Virus record (IMG/VR): IMGVR_UViG_3300026522_000002
Span: 36,575 to 100,574 of that record
Source of the DNA: a virus
Taxonomy: Duplodnaviria; Caudoviricetes
DNA: 64,000 nucleotides
Reading direction: 5' to 3' (one strand)
In this document: positions 183 to 49,520 of the stretch, piece after piece
Layout: the number at the start of each line of letters is the position of its first letter
Position numbering within the stretch: position 1 is the stretch's first letter
The notes under the pieces: model-generated
Database searches by the model: none
What the model saw: the letters and a program-made list of their open reading frames with translations, nothing else
Told to the model about the DNA's origin: nothing
Program-made: the position numbers and the translations under genes

Positions 183-317
183 TCCTCACTTTCGTAGTTA
201 GCACGTGACCACATCAGGCTGCCAGCTTGGTGTAGTCAGCAATATAAGAATTGCCAGTTATATAGTAATATCCCTTAATGTATTTCCTTCCACATACGAT
301 CAAAACCTGTCAGGCCC
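183..317 (-). ncRNA. ssrA: tmRNA coding piece (two-piece, permuted tmRNA)
   Basis: Starts GGGCCTGACAGGTTTTGAT at 317. Resume context ATAACT-GGC. Tag ORF 255->214 is GNSYIADYTKLAA-TGA. The 3' boundary is approximate. Confidence 0.9.
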
Positions 318-398
318 GATTGTAACCTTTTTCGCTCATGTCGCCGCCAAACTTAGCATTTACCGAATATCGCTATGGTTACATAAAAAGTCGCGTCG

Positions 399-465
399 GG
401 TGGACCTGGGGGTAGTCGAAACCCCGTCTCGCATGCGTATCTCATACAGGATAAAACTTCGATAG
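399..465 (-). ncRNA. ssrA: tmRNA acceptor piece (two-piece, permuted tmRNA)
   Basis: ...CGCATGCGAGACGGGGTTTCGACTACCCCCAGGTCCA. CAGGTCC pairs with GGGCCTG (317-311) including G3.U70, and CGCATGCG pairs with CGTATGTG (P2). The 5' boundary is approximate. Confidence 0.9.
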
Positions 466-4843: not shown

Positions 4844-5034
4844 ATCTCGTTCGCTTTTACAAAAGACATTACTTTCTCCCATTCATTGTCTCTTGCAATG
4901 TGGATAGTTTCGCCATCAACCAAGTCAATTTCTGTGTTTTCTTCGTCTACATCCACAATTGTTTCCAGATTTACAATGTATTCTTCTATTTCATTGTAAT
5001 CATTTTCATGATGAACTTTTAAGAATGTTGCCAT
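4840..5034 (-). CDS. Hypothetical acidic protein
   Basis: 64-aa ORF with ATGA coupling. Confidence 0.75.
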   Translation of the reverse strand: MATFLKVHHENDYNEIEEYIVNLETIVDVDEENTEIDLVDGETIHIARDNEWEKVMSFVKANEI

Positions 5035-5038
5035 AATA

Positions 5039-5275
5039 CTACTTGATTTGTTGTTCTACAAGTTGTTCTGGAATTGGAATAAACACAGGACTGTCCTTGA
5101 ATTTAAGGTTTTTGTACCAACTTGATGGTAATGCCATCATTTCACAGGTCGCATTACATCTAAGTTCACCTAATTGTGTATTATAATCTTTACACTTTTT
5201 AGGCTTTGATGTGTAGGCATATAGGTGACCATTTTCGTCTCTGGCTATCCAGACACCTTTTTTAAATCCTCCCAT
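5039..5275 (-). CDS. Hypothetical phage protein (WIARD motif)
   Basis: WIARDENGHLYAYTSKP; ends at a TAG 4 nt before the next ATG. Confidence 0.75.
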   Translation of the reverse strand: MGGFKKGVWIARDENGHLYAYTSKPKKCKDYNTQLGELRCNATCEMMALPSSWYKNLKFKDSPVFIPIPEQLVEQQIK

Positions 5276-5321
5276 ATTGATTATGTTTTAGAGGTTAATT
5301 ATTTTCATGAGACTTCACCGC

Positions 5322-5486
5322 TCATGATCGGTATACATTTGCGTAAAACAAATATGCCATTATTAAGTTGTCTATTGCATATACCCATGAAGGCATCTGT
5401 TCTTTTGTAATAAAAGCTCCAATTGCAAAAGCGACATTGATAATTATGGCAAGAGTCGTAAACATTTTAATGATTTCTTTTGTCAT
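5322..5486 (-). CDS. Small two-TM membrane protein
   Basis: Likely start MTKEII; two hydrophobic helices. Confidence 0.6.
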   Translation of the reverse strand: MTKEIIKMFTTLAIIINVAFAIGAFITKEQMPSWVYAIDNLIMAYLFYANVYRS

Positions 5487-5812
5487 ATTTGATAGATTTT
5501 TTTGAATTCTAACCATCGTTTTTCTGGGTCTCTTTCCAATATTCTTTGAAATGTATAATTGTAATCTTCATATACTGTTTCATACGAATCATACTTCCAA
5601 AAAATAAGTTTATTTGCGAGGTATTCTACTGAAACTCCAGTCTTCCACATTCTATGGATAGTACACGCCTTTGACAATGATTTGTCGTTTATTAAATTGT
5701 AGGCAATTATTTTTTGAGGAGTCAGTTTATACCTTTTTAAGACTTTTGTACGATTTAAGAATTCAATTAAACCATCTCGTAATTGACAATAATGGTTGTA
5801 TGTAATTGTCAT
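5483..5812 (-). CDS. Hypothetical protein
   Basis: 109-aa ORF with AATCAATATG leader. Confidence 0.75.
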   Translation of the reverse strand: MTITYNHYCQLRDGLIEFLNRTKVLKRYKLTPQKIIAYNLINDKSLSKACTIHRMWKTGVSVEYLANKLIFWKYDSYETVYEDYNYTFQRILERDPEKRWLEFKKIYQI

Positions 5813-5839
5813 ATTGATTATGATTTGATTACTTGTTTT

Positions 5840-5996
5840 GTGATAGGTGATGGATTCGAACCACCATTTTCTTCAATACACCACTGTGTATGAGAGGACG
5901 TTCTTTTGGTGAATAAAGAGTTCTTTTATGAAAATCATTTAGAGTTCTTGAGAAAAGCCAAAAGTTTCACCGTTTGCCAATTGAACTAACCTATCA
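5840..5996 (-). ncRNA. Expanded tRNA-like RNA (about 157 nt)
   Basis: TGATAGG/CCTATCA acceptor, GGTGG TTCGAAT CCATC T arm, D stem GTTC...GAAC interrupted by a roughly 65-nt GGTGAA...TTCACC insert, and no canonical anticodon loop. Confidence 0.65.
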
Positions 5997-6000
5997 TTTG

Positions 6001-6073
6001 TTGCCCGTATGGGAGTTGAACCCATGTTTCCCAGATCAGATACTGGGCGCTCTCCCCGTTGAGCCATCGGGCA
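6001..6073 (-). tRNA. tRNA-Gln(CTG)-like with 8-nt anticodon loop
   Basis: TGCCCGA TG GCTC..GAGC G CCCAG TATCTGAT CTGGG AAAC ATGGG TTCAACT CCCAT ACGGGCA A. Confidence 0.7.
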
Positions 6074-6074
6074 T

Positions 6075-6215
6075 ACACTACACATTCAAAGTACATAGAC
6101 AACCACTTTTGTTTATAGTCTTTTTAGGTTATGCAGATTAACCTTAATTGGCTCTTTACAACCGGATCCCTTGTTGTGTAGAGATGCACTATTTGTTCTG
6201 CAGCATATGTAGTGT
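6075..6215 (-). ncRNA. Putative multibranch RNA between tRNA-like genes
   Basis: Closing stem ACACTACAT/GTGTAGTGT enclosing several hairpins (for example AGGTTA/TAACCT and ACAAC/GTTGT). Confidence 0.4.
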
Positions 6216-6218
6216 TTT

Positions 6219-6290
6219 GTGGGGTATGCAGAATCGAACTGCGTAGGCCATACCGAAGGATTTTTGTTTAAACCTACTCCAATTACCCCA
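6219..6290 (-). ncRNA. Degenerate tRNA-like RNA
   Basis: TGGGGTA/TACCCCA acceptor and GCAG TTCGATT CTGC T arm; D and anticodon region non-canonical. Confidence 0.6.
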
Positions 6291-6296
6291 TATTAG

Positions 6297-6366
6297 TGGA
6301 CCCTTGAGACTTGAACTCAAAACTTACGTCAATGACGCACGTGTTACCAATTATACACCAGAGTCC
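6297..6366 (-). ncRNA. Degenerate tRNA-like RNA
   Basis: GGACTCT/AGGGTCC acceptor, D arm, TGAG TTCAAGT CTCA T arm; anticodon arm collapsed (GCGTC ATT GACGT). Confidence 0.6.
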
Positions 6367-6458
6367 TTATAAAAACCTCATTATCTTCACAGACCATGAG
6401 GCTAAGAATAACTTAATGTCTTTTATACATCAACATGATTAATATAGTATTAATTGAG

Positions 6459-6527
6459 TACCGCTGTACCCAGACACTCTTGTGTTTCGCCTGAATTTCA
6501 CAGGCTCATCGGTGGGTTTTAGCGGTA
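6459..6527 (-). ncRNA. Type I hammerhead ribozyme (U4C core variant)
   Basis: TACCGCT aaa ACCCA CCGATGA GCCTG tgaaatt CAGGC GAAA CAC aaga GTG TC^TGGGT ac AGCGGTA. All three stems pair and the cleavage triplet is GUC. Confidence 0.9.
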
Positions 6528-6589
6528 AATACTACTATTCTCACGAACCGTAGCATCCAAATGAAAGAATGAAAGAAAAAGAAATATTT

Positions 6590-7135
6590 TTAACGTTGTA
6601 GTAATGGAGAGTCACTTAATGGAATTTTATCTAATGGGATTTCATCTCCAATGATTATTTTATTAGAGACGTATTCACCGTCTTCATTTAAGTAATATTC
6701 CGCTCCAGCAGGTATGAAACACTGCACTATTACATTATGATCATAAATCGACAGGTCCATAACGTTATATGCTACACCTGCTTCATTAGGGTGAAATACA
6801 TACTTATAACCACCTACGATTACCAATTCTTTCGTTAATGGTAGTCTTTTACGATAAACCGTTCCTTTTTGTAAGGAATGGAATCCGCAATAGATACGCC
6901 AGTCGCTTTGATAATCTGTACCAAAACATTCAATACATAAATGTTCGCCATGTAAGCCATCTGCAACAAGAATGTTGTGACGCATGTTGTAAAAGATTTT
7001 ATCTCTCTGCCATGGTGATGTTAAAGGCTCACTTTGGTTTACAAAATGTTTTTTTACGTAGAATTTCCACACTTCAATCTTTCTTTTTGCGATGCGCGGT
7101 CTTGTACGCCATTTTTGATTAGTAATCCAACACAT
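6590..7135 (-). CDS. Hypothetical phage protein
   Basis: 181 aa; MCW...GFHS...CFIPAGAEYYLNEDGEYVS pattern seen in Bacteroidota phage proteins. Confidence 0.85.
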   Translation of the reverse strand: MCWITNQKWRTRPRIAKRKIEVWKFYVKKHFVNQSEPLTSPWQRDKIFYNMRHNILVADGLHGEHLCIECFGTDYQSDWRIYCGFHSLQKGTVYRKRLPLTKELVIVGGYKYVFHPNEAGVAYNVMDLSIYDHNVIVQCFIPAGAEYYLNEDGEYVSNKIIIGDEIPLDKIPLSDSPLLQR

Positions 7136-7203
7136 TTTGATAACGTATTTTGAAACTATCAGAAAGAGGATACGCCATTGATTGGCTCAAGGAACGTAAT
7201 ATT

Positions 7204-7401
7204 CTATAAAGAAATGTTATTCTCTTTGAGAATACTGCATACAATTTGACCATATATCTCATCAGTTGTGGCGTTGATTCGACGTATGGCTGCAAATGAA
7301 TCATTCAATCTATCTGGAGAAAGATAAGATGGAACTTCACCTGCTTCTTCTGCTCGCTGATATTCAGCAAACATCCGACTTGCTTCTTTTGATAGTTTCA
7401 T
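7204..7401 (-). CDS. Hypothetical protein
   Basis: 65 aa to TAG; would extend to TGA at 7159 if TAG were read through. Confidence 0.7.
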   Translation of the reverse strand: MKLSKEASRMFAEYQRAEEAGEVPSYLSPDRLNDSFAAIRRINATTDEIYGQIVCSILKENNISL

Positions 7402-7626
7402 GTTGTTGATAGATGTTAATTAACTCTAAATGTTGCCGTGACCTTTCTTATTCCGAGCTGTCAACCCATTTGAGGCTGTGGTTCACCCCAGGTTTATCTC
7501 AACCTGATTTAGTATTCGATTCCCCAAATAATGTAATTGAAGAATGGCGTTAGGACTTTGCAAGCCATCACCAATATGATGGCACCTGCGATTAGCGTGA
7601 TTAATGCTAACCACAGGTTAATTTTG

Positions 7627-7971
7627 TCATTTGTGGTCAATGTTGGTTTCATAAGCCTTTTGGTTAATCATTTTCCCAATTTCTGGGAGATATCGATTAT
7701 ATTCTCGCCCTGTCTTTTGAGACGTAACCTTAATATAGGCTTTCCCTGTTTTAGAGAGATAGATGGGATAAGTTTCACCTTTCTTCGTTTTGTACGAGTA
7801 TTCGGTTTTTGTTCCCGCGTTAGACTGTCTGGCCTTGCTATTACTGACATTGTCAGTGAAGGTCTTACCAACTAAGACATATTTAGCCGTGTCTTTAGCG
7901 GCCTCCTGTGCAAAACTTGGAATACACAGGGTGAGCATCATGATGATGCTGAAGATCAATTTTTTACACAT
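7627..7971 (-). CDS. Putative secreted/periplasmic protein
   Basis: Signal peptide (…PSFA^QE); YPIYLSKTGKAYI...SQKTGREY. Confidence 0.8.
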   Translation of the reverse strand: MCKKLIFSIIMMLTLCIPSFAQEAAKDTAKYVLVGKTFTDNVSNSKARQSNAGTKTEYSYKTKKGETYPIYLSKTGKAYIKVTSQKTGREYNRYLPEIGKMINQKAYETNIDHK

Positions 7972-8243
7972 AGTGGATTTATTCTTATGAATTGTGGAAA
8001 TGAATCTTCTCTTATTAATTTACGACACGCTTCTGCATCGTGTTGTATTTTTCCTGGAAGTCCATATTCTGTTGGATTTTCTCTACTTTGGATACATAAA
8101 TATGGATGATCTGGATCTTTTATAAGATGAAATAATATACATCCTATACATCCACCATTTTCTCCTCCGCTTGGAATACCTTTTTTTATTCTATAAGTAT
8201 ATTTCCCAAATGTAACTAATTGACCTGGTTTGTATTTAGTCAT
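7956..8243 (-). CDS. Small Cys-rich protein, KPGQL family
   Basis: MTKYKPGQLVTFGKYTYRIKK...CIGC...C...C. Confidence 0.8.
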   Translation of the reverse strand: MTKYKPGQLVTFGKYTYRIKKGIPSGGENGGCIGCILFHLIKDPDHPYLCIQSRENPTEYGLPGKIQHDAEACRKLIREDSFPQFIRINPLCVKN

Positions 8244-14432: not shown

Positions 14433-14507
14433 TGCTCCATGGTGTAGCGGTAGCACGGGAGGCTCTAACCCTCCAGGTCCGGGTTCGACTCGATGGTGGG
14501 GCGACCA
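14433..14507 (+). tRNA. Amber suppressor tRNA (anticodon CTA), Gln-type body
   Basis: TGCTCCA TG GTGT AGCGGTA GCAC G GGAGG CT-CTA-AC CCTCC AGGT CCGGG TTCGACT CGATGG TGGGGCG A CCA. Confidence 0.92.
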
Positions 14508-14529: not shown

Positions 14530-15956
14530 ATGGAATTGAAGATTAAAAGACTAACTGAGGATGCAATCCTCCCAATTCGCGCCCATAAAGGAGACGCTGG
14601 AATTGATTTAACTTGTACAACAATTACTCAGGAAATTAACGAGTGTGGTCAGTTGATTATAGTATATCATACTGGCTTAGCAATTGAAATTCCTGAAGGT
14701 CATGTTGGGTTGTTGTTCCCTCGCTCAAGCATTGCAAACAAGTCATTGTCGCTTACGAATAGTGTAGGTGTAATAGACGCTAAACTCTGCATCGTTTTTT
14801 AACCTATCGATGCAACCAGTTCTATTATATTTTGCGTTATCTTTATATAACCAAAAAAGATATCGATATGCTTATAACAAAAACATGTTTAATGTGTGGA
14901 AAAGAGTTTCAAGTTCCACATTGGAGAAAAGATAGCGCAAAATATTGTTCCGTAGAATGTAGACAATCTGCATTACATGGAGAACTTAATTGTACGTGTG
15001 AAGTTTGTGGAAAAAGATTTCACATAAAAGAATCTCAATTAAACCGATATAAACATCATACATGCTCAAAGAAGTGTATGAATGAGTTAAAAAGAACATT
15101 ATATTCTGGAATTGGAAATCATCAATATGGTTTAAAAGGAGATTTAAATGCTTCGTTTAAAGGAAAAGAATTAACAAAGATCAACAACGATTTAGTAGAT
15201 ATTTACGTTTACTGTCCAGACCATCCGTATGCAAATAAAAACGGAAGAGTCGTTAAACACAGATTAATCGTAGAACAGCATTATGAATTGTTTGATTTTA
15301 AATACTTCGAAAAAGTAAAAGGGCGTGTAGTATTAAAAAAGACTACTCAAATTCATCATATAAACGAAGATCACAACGACAATAGAATAGAAAATTTAAT
15401 ACCCGTTACAAGGTCTGAACACAAAATAATACATAATCTTTTTAAAGATATTGTGAGGGATCCGAAAAACGGAAGAATAACTGGCGTCATTAAACAGGGT
15501 GAATTGCTGGAAAAGCCGGAAGCGGCCAATCAGCAGCCAAGCTTAGATGGTAACATCTCTGAAGGTTCAGAGACTAGCAGTCGAGTCCTTATTGAGGACG
15601 GTAATACTGCCAAGAGTGCCCTGCCCAGTAATACTGGTGAAGATATAGTCCGACCTGCAGATATAACAAACGAAACTGCAGAATTGCAGGATAAAGAGCC
15701 TGTAAGTTAACATATGGGTTATCGCGGTGAGGTTATGGCTAAGATGCGCTCCACTACAGATGTGGTTCCTGCAATCTACAAACCAGGCGAGCGATTCGCA
15801 CAACTTGTTATCGTTCCAATTCCAGAAGTAGAGATAACTGAAGTAGCCGAACTTAGCGAAACAGATCGTGGTGAAGGCGGCTTTGGTTCAACAGAAAATA
15901 CTACAGAAGCTCCCGCAGAGATGGACTCTGTAGAGCCAGCTGTGGCAGCTGAGTAA
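14530..15956 (+). CDS. dut: dUTPase, spliced: join(14530..14781,15717..15956), 163 aa
   Basis: Motifs GDAGIDL, PRSS, GVIDA|GYRGE, ERFAQL and RGEGGFGST; the exons join in frame. Confidence 0.95.
14812..14839 (+). promoter_or_regulatory. Putative late promoter inside the intron
   Basis: GCAAC-N18-CGTTA, the same motif as 12253-12280, 28 nt upstream of the HNH ATG. Confidence 0.6.
14868..15710 (+). CDS. Intron-encoded HNH homing endonuclease with N-terminal Zn-finger repeats
   Basis: CxxC...YCSxxC repeats; HP...HRLIVE...[16 protein letters not shown]...EHKIIH. Confidence 0.9.
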   Translation: MLITKTCLMCGKEFQVPHWRKDSAKYCSVECRQSALHGELNCTCEVCGKRFHIKESQLNRYKHHTCSKKCMNELKRTLYSGIGNHQYGLKGDLNASFKGKELTKINNDLVDIYVYCPDHPYANKNGRVVKHRLIVEQHYELFDFKYFEKVKGRVVLKKTTQIHHINEDHNDNRIENLIPVTRSEHKIIHNLFKDIVRDPKNGRITGVIKQGELLEKPEAANQQPSLDGNISEGSETSSRVLIEDGNTAKSALPSNTGEDIVRPADITNETAELQDKEPVS

Positions 15957-44451: not shown

Positions 44452-45373
44452 GTCCGTTATAGCAAAGATTATGGCAGACTTAGACTTGTCAGAAAAGAAT
44501 GTCCGCATAACAGATATAAAAGAATGGATATTTGAAGCTGTTGAAAAGATTGGAGCCCCAACATAGTACGAAGTAGTTGAATCTGGGGAAAAAGGTGAGC
44601 CAATCTTAAAGATAGCAGACAGACAGGTCCCAATCCCTAGGGGATTATAGTTCTTGGAAGGTGTTGCATATAGTCCAAATCCTGGTGGTCCGTGGTATCC
44701 GATGAGAAAAGATACTGGAATATTCCACAATCTTGGACCTCATCATCACCCAAAGTGGCATAGTGACAGCGATGCTTGTTGCTGCCATCACCGAGAATGG
44801 GTAGAAAAGTATCACGTACCGTGCATACATGACCATTACCACGAAGGGTTTATAGAACATCCTACGACAATGAACGCACAAGTTTGGACTAGGAATGGAA
44901 TGAAATATGTCGACACGATGTTCCCAAAAGGTGTTCCTTTTAGAGATCTCACATACTTTATTAAACCTGGATGGATTGTGGTTAATATGCCCAAAGGTTA
45001 CATTAAGCTTTCGTACAAACGCATACTTACAGACGAAAAGGGATACCCAGTAATTCCAGATTTACCATCTTATCAAGAGGCTATATATTGGTATGTAGTA
45101 ATGAAACTCAGCTTCCCTAAATACCTTAAAGGTAAACTTGGAGGTAAGAAAGGAGTTAATACTGCAGCTAATACATATTAGTACATACAACAGCAATGGC
45201 ATTTCTATCGTAATCAAGCATATGCTGAATGCATGATGCCTGATGAAGGCGAAATGAGGGCTATAAAGAATGATTGGACAAAGCTTATCCCAGATTGGGA
45301 TTCTGACGATACGTTCTTTAGACATGCTGGAGATAGACAAACTATTATAAACGATTATTATTATGGATACTAA
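44426..45373 (+). CDS. Tail tubular protein / ring 1 (315 aa, 3 TAG)
   Basis: DIKEWIFEAVEKIG...GYIKLSY...TDEKGYPVIPD..SYQEAIYWYV. Confidence 0.8.
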
Positions 45374-48300
45374 TCAACGAACTGCAAATAATTATCAGGT
45401 TAATACCTTTACAAAAGGTATGAACTCTGATACATCATATGACATGATAGGTGCGGATCAGTACTTGTTTGGTTAGAATATCCGCATCACTAATAATACA
45501 TTGTTGTGGGGAGATTTAAACCCTAATAATACAGAGATGGTTGTGGCTCCTGTACCTGCTGGCAAATCGTTTACAAGTGGAGTAATTACATCGGCAGATA
45601 AGATTCTAGCAGTAGATTCAATAGAGAATATTGGCATTGTTATTGTAAAAAATACGGATAATAAATGGGAAGTATACAAAGCCATATATTCTACAAACGA
45701 TGTTGTTTTCAAGTCTATATATGTTTCACAAAACGAGCCAAAATTACCAAAGTTTTCTACTGTAATGATCAAAGAAGTAGAAAAAGAAGACGGTGAAAGT
45801 GTAATAAAAGTATATATAGCGGACGGTCAAGGGGCGCCTATTTGTTTATTTGTGAACGGTGGATTTAATGTAAACAATATACCGGAAGATTATTTAAGGT
45901 CGAATGCATATTTTCCTAGTTCTAAACCCAGATTACAAAAAACTAGTGGAAATCTTAAGACACAACAAGTACAATATGCCTATAGATTTTATACCAAATA
46001 TTCATACGTTAGTAAATTGTCTCCACTAACCAACAAAATACATGTGATAGGAACGAACAGAGGTATTGAAACTGGCAATGCGGAAGATACAGTAACAGAC
46101 ATAGGTATTAAATTGACCATTACTCCTGACGAATTGGCAAATAAAATATTTGATAAAATACAAATATTTAGAATAAGTTATATTAGGCCAAATTAGCAGC
46201 CGGATATATACTTAATCGCGGACGAGTATTTTACAAAAAACGAGTAGTATTTATTTGTAGATAACGGAACTACAAATTTACAAAAATATTCATTGGACGA
46301 ATTCTCCGCATTATAGACATACACTCTTGTTCCGTAGGTAATAGAATCCAGCTAGGGGTATTTGTTCGAAAGTAATATCAAGGATGAAACAATTATCTAG
46401 GAAAATCCACATTTTACAGTAATTCCTAGAGCTTGCGAGTTTTCTATTAAGATAGACGATTCCGAATATTATGATGAAACGTTACATAAGGATTTAAAAC
46501 CGTCCGTGTCGAATTATACAAAAACTACAGACGACAGTAATCTTATAGGAAATTATTTTTATCAATGTGGTATAGATTATTCCGGAGACGTTTCGTATAA
46601 TGAAATGTTTACATCCAGTTTGTTAAGGTCTCTTAGATATGGTGAAAAGTATGAATATGGCATAGTATATTACGATAAATATGGCAGAAGAACGGATGTA
46701 AATCAAATAAAATATAATAATTCTGCGCACATTACTGTAAATTCTAGTGTAGAGGATACAGGATCGCTTGGATTTGCTAACAGACCATTTTATAACAAAG
46801 GTTTTGCGAATCCGTATGGTGTAGAATTTTAGATAAGCACCGAAAATGATTGGGGCGATTTTGTAGGATTTGAAATCGTAAGAAGAGAAAAATCTTACAA
46901 CCACACGAAAACTTTATTACAAGTTGCATTATCCAGGCCCTCTAGGCAGGCTAAATTTGCAAATCCGTCATATAGAACGCCCTATTATCCAAACGTACTG
47001 TTATCTACCAATTTCGTATATTATGTATCTAGTAGATCGCAACAAATAAATTTTACAGGCGATCGTGTGTATGAATTGTGGACACCTACTCTCTCCTATG
47101 GAGAAAATGTACCGTATTTTGATTATGGTGCAACAAATGTGGAAAATGCTACTCTTTATCAAGCATTTGCCCCTGAAATAAATATAACACAAAATGATGT
47201 ATTGTCATAGTTATCTGCAGGTTAGATATTTCTTAATCCGGTATCTTACTTTATAAAGAAGGTGTAGTTATCTGATATAGAATAGGAAGGTGAAGATAAT
47301 GCAATAGATTATGCTACGAGATCAATGGTATATGATCCTGGTAATCCCTAGAAAGTAATTGCGCCTATCGATGGAGATAGCCCATACCAGTCTACAATAC
47401 CCGGTTTGGATACTCATGAAATTGATGAAGGTGTTTATTTATTCAGAAAATATGAACTATCTCCTGGTTATGGAGGGAATGACGATCCGTATAGCAGTGA
47501 ATTTAGAGATGTCTCTGAAAAAGTAACAAGAGCCACTATATTTAAATTGGACTATAAAAGTCAAGACTTTAATAATGTTTCACACCCGTTGATAACCGCT
47601 GTTGCACAAGTTAAAAATCCCAATTGGGAAAATGCATTTTCCTCAATTTAGTTGGGAGAAGATAAAATGAAGGTTATATCTGCTGTAAAACAATATAAGG
47701 CTTATAACACTAACGTTGGCGATTTGGAATATAACAATTGGGCGTCGACAGGGATGTACGATTTGGCTGCTACAGAAAGCGAAGCTGCTGCACAACCTGG
47801 ATAGATGGACGGCATTACACGTAAAAATTACGTATATCATATCCAAGGGGAAGATGTGTCTTTTAATAGTCGAGGATGGATAGGTCCAGGCCCAGTTTGT
47901 ATGTTATTGAACATAGAAGCTCCGGAAATAGGATCTTGCCTACGCTAGCAAATTCAACCAAAATTTATAGGCACAATTGTTGCAAATGTAGAGCATCCTA
48001 CTATAGATTATTCTCCGTATGACGCATACTTTGGATTTGGAAACTATTTTGAATTGCCGAAAGGACAAAATACGGTTACTTGTAAAGTATTTGATGGAGA
48101 TGTGTATTAGAATTTTTCAGAATTTGTAAATCTGTTTAAAACGTATGATTTCAATGATAGAAAGTACACACTGTAGTCTGGACAAGTTGTTTATTATATT
48201 CCTACTGAATCTAAAATAAATGTAGCATTTGATTATGGTATGAATTATAACAACACCGGGTCAGCTAATCTTACCTTAGAACCTGGAAAAATAGAAGGGA

Positions 48301-49520
48301 TTTCATCACAAAATAGGCCGTTGCATCAATACAATCTGATATATTCAGATAACGATTGGAGTATAAGCTCATATACCCCAATTGTAGAAAAAGAGTTAGA
48401 TAGTATTTCCTATCCACAACGTATTTGTTATTCACAATTAAAAACAAATGGAGAGTCGATAGATAATTGGCAAATATTTAGACCGGCTGATTTTATAGAT
48501 ACGGATTCTAGATATGGGGAAATAACAGAATTGTTGTCTGTAGATAATAATCTTTATTTTTGGCAAACGGGAGCATTTGGAAAACTTAGTGTGAATGAAA
48601 GAAGTCTTGTCACCGACAATGCTGGCGAAACCATCCAATTGGGATAGGGCGGCGTACTTCAAAGAGTGGATTATTTAAGTACAAAATACGGCATAAGAAA
48701 ATACGACTATTGTGCAACAAGTACAGAAGATGCCTTGTATTGGATAGATGTTCTAAATAAAGCAATCTTAATATGCAGACAAAACCAGGTTGCTAATTAC
48801 GGTGAACAACTAAATGTACAAAATATAATAAACAAATACATTTATAAAGACGACATTAGTATAATTCCACGCATACACTACGATATACAAACCAACGAAT
48901 TATTGTGTCAGTGTTTAAAAGACGAAGAAGGTGAAAAGCAATTGGTGTTTAATACTAAATATAATATTGCTACTTCTCTATATACAAGAAGATATTCAGA
49001 TATAATATTATTTAATAACGTACTCGTGTCTCTTGTAAAGGAGGGAACAAACATTTTTCCAAATTAGTTAAATTATATAAATACAGTATCTGGATATTTG
49101 AATCCAACAATATTATAGTTTGTAGTAAATTCATCGCCATCTCAAACAAAAGTATTTGATAATCAAAAAGTAGTTACTTTGAATAGGAACAATTGGGAGG
49201 AGGAAGAATATGAAGATGCCGAGAATGACGTCCACATGAAATCAAAAACATTTTGGGATAAACATGGGCCATATTTTACTGCGTACATTTTGAGCAAGGA
49301 ATACGAATTCTCTACAGATATACGTAATACAAATAATAAACCGAACGCTGTTACAGATCGAGAGGGCAATATTGTATATGACATACCTAGAACTGGGAGT
49401 AATGATTGGGGAGATCGTTTGAGAGGTAAGTGGATGAAAGAAACAATTACAGATACTCAGCCAAGACAAGATTACTGTATTTCTCACATAATCACTAAAT
49501 TTAGACAATCGTATAGTTAA
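45363..49520 (+). CDS. Tail stabilisation / muzzle protein (1385 aa, about 21 TAG)
   Basis: QVNTFTKGMNSD start; SLRYGEKYEYGIV, FDGD, GESIDNW, YGEIT, NERSL, RLRGKW; six track ORFs share one frame. Confidence 0.88.

Follow-up and report, generated by a model that had tools for sequence, protein, structure and literature searches.

The minus strand of the 64,000-nt window analysed here, which comprises bases 36575–100574 of an IMG/VR virus record that is 100,574 bp long and has direct terminal repeats, contains a complete type I hammerhead at positions 6527..6459, including an outer 7-bp extension of stem I. By sequence comparison, this element is a homologous member of a widespread and covarying family of phage type I hammerheads, and it carries C in place of U at core position 4 (U4C). 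We consider it fairly probable that the element is an active hammerhead that would cut the early-strand transcript and separate upstream mRNA from the non-coding RNAs encoded downstream.

The element shows the helices and core residues expected of its class. Read along the minus strand, an outer stem I of 7 bp (UACCGCU, 6527–6521, paired with AGCGGUA, 6465–6459) is separated by an internal loop (AAA, 6520–6518, opposite AC, 6467–6466) from an inner stem I of 5 bp (ACCCA, 6517–6513, paired with UGGGU, 6472–6468). The core sequence CCGAUGA (6512–6506) is followed by a 5-bp stem II (GCCUG/CAGGC, loop UGAAAUU; 6505–6489), the residues GAA (6488–6486), a 4-bp stem III (ACAC/GUGU, loop AAGA; 6485–6474) and C17 (6473), and the three helices meet in a central junction as the class requires. 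The core residues C3 (C6512), G5, A6, G8 and A9 (GAUGA, 6510–6506), G12, A13 and A14 are all present, together with the A15.1–U16.1 pair (A6485/U6474) and a non-G residue at position 17 (C6473), while the U4 of the strict consensus is replaced by C6511. The scissile bond predicted from the GUC triplet after stem III lies 3' of C17 (6473) and 5' of U1.1 (6472), the same position as in the original prediction.

When the element was folded alone with RNAfold, both the minimum free energy (MFE) and the centroid structures were this three-way junction, with an energy of -25.9 kcal/mol (z = -3.5) that was matched by none of 200 shuffled sequences, and the junction was kept as both the MFE and the centroid structure within 227 nt of context. 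The sequence reading, the MFE fold and the finding that this site is the sole descriptor match in the window thus agree with the original prediction of a complete minus-strand hammerhead having type I topology, a CCGAUGA core with C replacing U4, GAAA, a GUC triplet and a bulged, extended stem I. The loop II sequence UGAAAUU and an A-rich segment of stem I (UAAAA, 6521–6517) correspond to two elements that family members share, namely loop II of the form UGAAA(A)UU and an A-rich stretch located 5' of a stem I of 5–6 bp, which are putative elements of a tertiary contact between stem I and loop II. The outer extension of stem I, at -16.1 kcal/mol, exceeds 90 of 91 distinct family members in strength. 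As a separate observation, the 5' end that cleavage would generate (6472–6455, minus strand) can refold into a 7-bp hairpin (UGGGUAC, loop AGCG, GUACUCA); such refolding would sequester a stem I strand and cap the 5'-OH end in this model, and it may be a chance pairing.

The genomic setting of the element was defined next to its structure. The major head and portal proteins of the virus match crAss-type PHROGs, the reading of TAG as a sense codon merges the plus-strand late genes (19699–63999) into long ORFs (among them 45363–49520, with 21 TAGs in 1385 aa, and 53308 to beyond 63999, with 20 TAGs in more than 3564 aa), and a fitting tRNA with anticodon CUA is encoded at 14433–14507; the virus is therefore a crAss-like phage whose late genes are TAG-recoded. 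The window also encodes a permuted two-piece tmRNA (214–460, minus strand; Rfam RF04321, 51.4 bits; ARAGORN tag GNSYIADYTKLAA) and a group I intron (15429–15670, plus strand; RF00028, 64.7 bits).

The hammerhead lies within a minus-strand block of small ORFs, where the surrounding ORFs and RNA genes are all on the same strand. In the order of transcription, an ORF of 181 aa (7135..6590, with a weak match to phrog_13450), whose stop codon is located 33 nt before a first GUGA-tetraloop hairpin, is followed by this hairpin 1, the hammerhead, an AT-rich spacer, a second GUGA hairpin with a U-run, a tRNA/tRNA-like array and the next ORF. The array (5841..6366, minus strand), delineated with ARAGORN, Rfam tRNA matches and folds, consists of a cloverleaf with a tiny anticodon loop (6366–6297), an acceptor/T-arm element (6290–6220) that precedes a structured spacer of 145 nt, a tRNA with an 8-nt anticodon loop containing CUG (6073–6001), and a tRNA scaffold with large inserts (5995–5841). 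The proposal that the hammerhead heads this tRNA-like cluster was correct as to position, and the related genome G003 shows the same order, with a hairpin, a hammerhead, a further hairpin and a tRNA-Gln(UUG) about 75 nt downstream; however, hairpin 2 and its U-run (6403–6371) intervene between the ribozyme and the array.

To place the element among known hammerheads, both descriptors and covariance models were used. A hand-written descriptor (core C[CU]GANGA, stems of at least 4 bp, GAAA and U-H) returned a single site on both strands of the 64-kb window, at 6527..6459, and none in 100 dinucleotide shuffles. The comparison with Rfam hammerhead models, put forward in the original prediction as a check, gave no support: no hammerhead match was obtained at the site at the gathering score, a search of the genome with RF00163 at E ≤ 10 did not recover it, and the best Rfam match at E ≤ 10 was a partial, permuted alignment to RF00008 (Hammerhead_3) with 14.7 bits against a threshold of 48.5. 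A canonical type I hammerhead of a sister phage (L118:734–788) reaches only 23.6 bits with RF00163, whose gathering score is 34, and since this canonical relative also falls below it, the Rfam threshold is uninformative for the clade. The whole phage hammerhead family is invisible to a standard Rfam scan at gathering thresholds.

Pattern scans of IMG/VR recovered 48 stretches with the CCGAUGAG version of the motif and more than 118 with the CUGAUGAG version, and a model denoted R1 aligned 83 strong matches (69 distinct) from foreign viral contigs in these scans. The alignment of the 83 sequences was 94.9% paired and had a covariation score of 0.72, whereas shuffles scored 0.15 and slid controls no more than 0.09. 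A covariance model constructed exclusively from those 83 hammerheads of other contigs, with the query left out (R2), scored the window hammerhead at 63.9 bits (rough E-value of ~2e-22), covering 6467..6518 of the minus strand, and the element at 6459..6527 was its only match in the 64-kb window and in the whole 100,574-bp genome. Membership in the hammerhead lineage is secure because R2, built without the query, assigns the site this score. Searches for other hammerhead types in the same genome found none. Some weaker candidates were discarded in the course of these scans: an RF00163 match of 14.3 bits (G000:6752–6798) was not confirmed by R2, and weak CCGAUGAG matches in G014 and G031–G034, which have no GAAA, were rejected as hammerheads.

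A blastn search with positions 5700–7200 gave no match in the INPHARED phage collection, and neither the protein of the upstream ORF nor an exact 29-mer found relatives in IMG/VR. Kin were collected through the major capsid protein, which yielded 496 related loci, and 27 near-complete relatives were scanned with the pattern C[CT]GATGAG...CGAAA. Seven hammerhead-like sites were identified in six of these genomes, all with the CUGAUGA core, and their stems II show compensatory changes (GUCUU/AAGAC, GUCGU/ACGAC and GUCUC/GAGAC, versus GCCUG/CAGGC in the window). Model R1 found further sites, type I and type III hammerheads both occur among the crAss-like relatives, and two of the type III sister elements pass the RF00008 gathering score.

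The substitution at position 4 was singled out in the original prediction as a core variant that deserves testing. C4 is unique among 48 related crAss-like records, whose hammerheads have the canonical CUGAUGA core. The same U4C substitution is already documented in a viroid, according to PMC3088659. Moreover, U4C recurs in IMG/VR, where at least 13 distinct, well-paired hammerheads (stem I of at least 5 bp, stem III of at least 3 bp and many pair types per stem position) were found among the CCGAUGAG matches, at loci L146, L150, L151, L152, L154, L157, L159, L168, L171, L176, L179, L187 and L188. Since some U4C sub-lineages have diverged in stems I and III and kept C4 throughout, the variant persists through divergence. 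As judged from these comparisons, U4C is a naturally maintained variant and not a case of obvious decay, and we count it as a core variant within the class because the U4C viroid hammerhead works in vivo and 13 examples exist in IMG/VR. The pipeline of Perreault et al. 2011 discarded core-mutated matches by rule (PMC3088659, Methods), and U4C may consequently be under-reported, given that curated hammerhead searches excluded core mutants.

The same substitution raises the question of whether the element is still catalytic. One could envisage a hammerhead by descent that was recently inactivated by U4C, is now catalytically dead or nearly so, and persists as a structured spacer, an explanation that we regard as unlikely but worth serious weight. 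It draws on the uniqueness of C4 among the 48 clade records and on the 17 metagenome hammerheads that share the exact stem II/loop II of the window, all 17 of which have U4, leaving C4 a singleton among these 18; in addition, about 20 of the 27 complete relatives have no hammerhead at all, which suggests that its function is dispensable in the clade. The biochemical precedent is two-sided, as the passage in PMC3088659, citing Ambros and Flores 1998, describes the activity of the U4C viroid hammerhead as considerably lower in vitro and its support of infectivity as retained. Against inactivation, the remaining core nucleotides of the window element, its three stems, loop II and the A-rich element of stem I are intact, the stem I extension is exceptionally stable instead of eroded, and U4C is maintained across diverged lineages elsewhere. 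The presence of the same loop in 17 metagenome hammerheads also indicates that the 7-nt loop II is the standard form and involves no deletion. Taken together, we regard C4 as a tolerated natural variant that probably slows catalysis.

Whether structural features of the element make up for C4 was addressed by comparing stem I among family members. The outer extension of stem I is not a general compensation for U4C (Mann-Whitney p = 0.70), and contiguous stem I is slightly longer in U4C hammerheads (median of 6 versus 5 bp, p = 0.004). As U4C members generally have no such clamps, the strong outer clamp is particular to the window copy, and it may or may not compensate for C4; in the favoured model, the clamp together with the retained loop II and A-rich stem I elements may offset the substitution.

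According to the reading that we favour, that of an active hammerhead, transcription of the minus (early-gene) strand would be followed by folding of the three-way junction and self-cleavage on the 3' side of C17 (6473|6472). Such a cut would give a 5' product consisting of the upstream mRNA, which would terminate in hairpin 1 and the compact body of the ribozyme and bear a 2',3'-cyclic phosphate; the 3' product, with a 5'-OH at its first residue U6472, would comprise the spacer, hairpin 2 and the tRNA/tRNA-like array. The mRNA and the non-coding RNA precursor would thereby have independent fates, with no host nuclease required. Cleavage activity, co-transcription with the neighbouring genes and consequences for RNA stability are inferred.

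The GUGA hairpins that flank the hammerhead bear directly on which RNAs such a cut would separate. Hairpin 1 (6528..6557, minus strand), which abuts the outer stem I when folded in context, consists of a variable outer stem of 8 bp, then a G.A mismatch, and a GUUC/GAAU inner stem capped by the GUGA loop. Hairpin 2 with its UUU(UU) tail (6371..6403, the hairpin itself at 6403–6374, minus strand) is situated 9 nt upstream of the first tRNA-like element, and its inner stem has covaried to GUCU/AGAU. A further copy of the GUGA hairpin is located outside the window (G000:32382–32395). The 14-mer GGTTCGTGAGAATA occurs in one to three copies in 19 of the 27 relatives and almost never in the reversed control, and the outer stems of the hairpins covary among relatives (L084–L117). 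Across the region 5000–8000, only hairpin 1 and the hammerhead (6549–6473) align to relatives, with 77–78% DNA identity, and the flanks do not. Within the wider hammerhead family, a GUGA hairpin adjoins 2 of the 122 matches listed, both of them clade relatives. These hairpins could be terminators, promoter-linked elements or protein-binding RNA sites; if hairpin 1 or hairpin 2 acted as a terminator or promoter, different RNAs would be joined in the transcript. In a separate comparison, two GUGA hairpins that precede the hammerhead of G025 (L118:643–736) together matched the Bacteroides sRNA family BTnc201 (RF04177) with 20.7 bits, which is not significant (E = 0.2), and this is a possible hint of similar hairpins in Bacteroides hosts.

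A promoter function of hairpin 1 would give the ribozyme a different task. Transcription would then start at or just before the hairpin, and the hammerhead, although active, would separate no upstream mRNA; it would cut off a 5'-triphosphate leader made up of the hairpin and the ribozyme and leave an RNA with a defined 5'-OH end, much as synthetic ribozyme insulators do. We consider both the promoter-proximal start and this leader-removing role to be improbable. In many relatives the hairpin is found 0–11 nt before hammerheads, tRNAs, tmRNA-like RNAs and some ORFs, hairpin and hammerhead form one conserved module between unrelated flanks, and many family members are located about 30 nt upstream of a ribosome-binding site (RBS) and ATG, all of which would suit such a role. 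However, a scan for sigma-70-type promoters found nothing special at the hammerhead locus, the upstream ORF ends on the same strand only 33 nt before the hairpin, and the hairpin, often followed by a U-run, could equally well be a terminator or a protein-binding RNA site.

A broader scheme, which we offer as a speculation of low probability, is that in this group of TAG-recoded crAss-like phages GUGA hairpins mark the points at which early-strand non-coding RNAs are processed, with RNase P making the cut where a tRNA or tmRNA follows and a built-in hammerhead doing so elsewhere. The cassette would then be a mobile, host-independent punctuation module, and U4C combined with the clamp would represent a tuned, slower version that sets when the tRNA-mimic array is released with respect to the code switch. 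Finally, a chance match to the short hammerhead consensus, unrelated to ribozymes, has only the missing Rfam gathering match and the best Rfam score of 14.7 bits in its favour, and it is refuted by the R2 score, the absence of descriptor matches in shuffled sequence and the DNA homology of hairpin and hammerhead to relatives, RF00163 under-scoring a canonical relative as well, so that we assign it practically no weight.

With respect to known systems, the closest structural counterparts of the active hammerhead that we propose are the type I hammerheads of bacteria and phages (RF00163), whose occurrence in phages, also stated in the original prediction, is well documented (PMC3088659, PMC6155905). 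The window element shares with them an open stem I and closed stems II and III, the GAUGA...GAAA core, the A15.1–U16.1 pair, the GUC triplet and an intergenic location in a phage, as well as two features putatively engaged in tertiary contact, the conserved loop II and the A-rich portion of stem I. It differs from them in C4, in a sub-threshold score (which canonical relatives also show), in an unusually long outer clamp and in its fusion to a clade-specific GUGA hairpin. The U4C viroid hammerhead has the same core substitution, but it processes multimeric replication intermediates of a circular plant-pathogen RNA, whereas the element described here lies in the transcript of a dsDNA phage.

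The closest functional analogy, should the hammerhead cleave as proposed, would be the theta (minimal HDV-like) ribozymes that are found beside tRNAs in TAG-reassigning gut phages and for which a role in tRNA precursor processing that is independent of host enzymes was proposed (Kienbeck et al. 2024, PMC10879173). In both cases a small ribozyme is encoded beside tRNA genes in a TAG-recoded gut phage. Theta ribozymes nevertheless belong to another ribozyme class and cleave at their own 5' end, so that tRNA 3' ends are trimmed, whereas the window hammerhead would cut close to its 3' end; it precedes the array, and a distance of about 100 nt that includes a hairpin separates it from the first tRNA-like element.

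Sister phages carry type III (RF00008) and RAGATH-1 (RF03152) hammerheads that resemble the window element in clade, in their conserved stem II/loop II and in similar intergenic positions, some of them after a GUGA hairpin (L090) or near tRNAs (L121, L124); they differ in that their topology is circularly permuted or an additional domain is present, and the core is the canonical CUGAUGA in every case. In two relatives, G027 (L121:1501–2237) and G041 (L124:125–1568), a type I hammerhead, a RAGATH-1 hammerhead (67.7 and 57.6 bits with RF03152 at L121 and L124, respectively) and a tRNA (Met or Gln) are encoded on one strand. Other hammerheads of the clade precede ORFs. No link to tRNAs was found across the wider family, in which a tRNA lies within 300 nt downstream in 5 of the 122 matches listed and within 1 kb in 9 cases downstream versus 10 upstream.

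Literature searches retrieved no description of a crAss-like phage in which a hammerhead stands at the head of a tRNA array, an absence that is not proof of novelty. With hammerheads already familiar from phages and U4C on record as a natural variant, the element is a solid but fairly ordinary find. Its interest lies in the biological role of phage hammerheads, which are abundant and whose function is still called an open question (PMC6155905). The single hammerhead of this genome, fused to a clade-conserved hairpin, provides a compact natural test case for that role, at a locus that forms the boundary between mRNA and a tRNA/tRNA-like array in a phage whose TAG codons change from stop to sense. 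The recurrence of U4C is relevant to how rigidly ribozyme annotation should hold to the core consensus, and type I hammerheads of phages are under-called by Rfam RF00163.

An additional observation concerns the relation between hammerhead topologies in this clade. The hammerheads at L085 (G022:18680–18737) and L086 (G017:48661–48699) are located about 30–40 nt before what is seemingly the same ORF (MAKK...). Their topologies differ (type I in one, type III in the other), and this suggests a topology swap or an independent acquisition of ribozymes at one gene.
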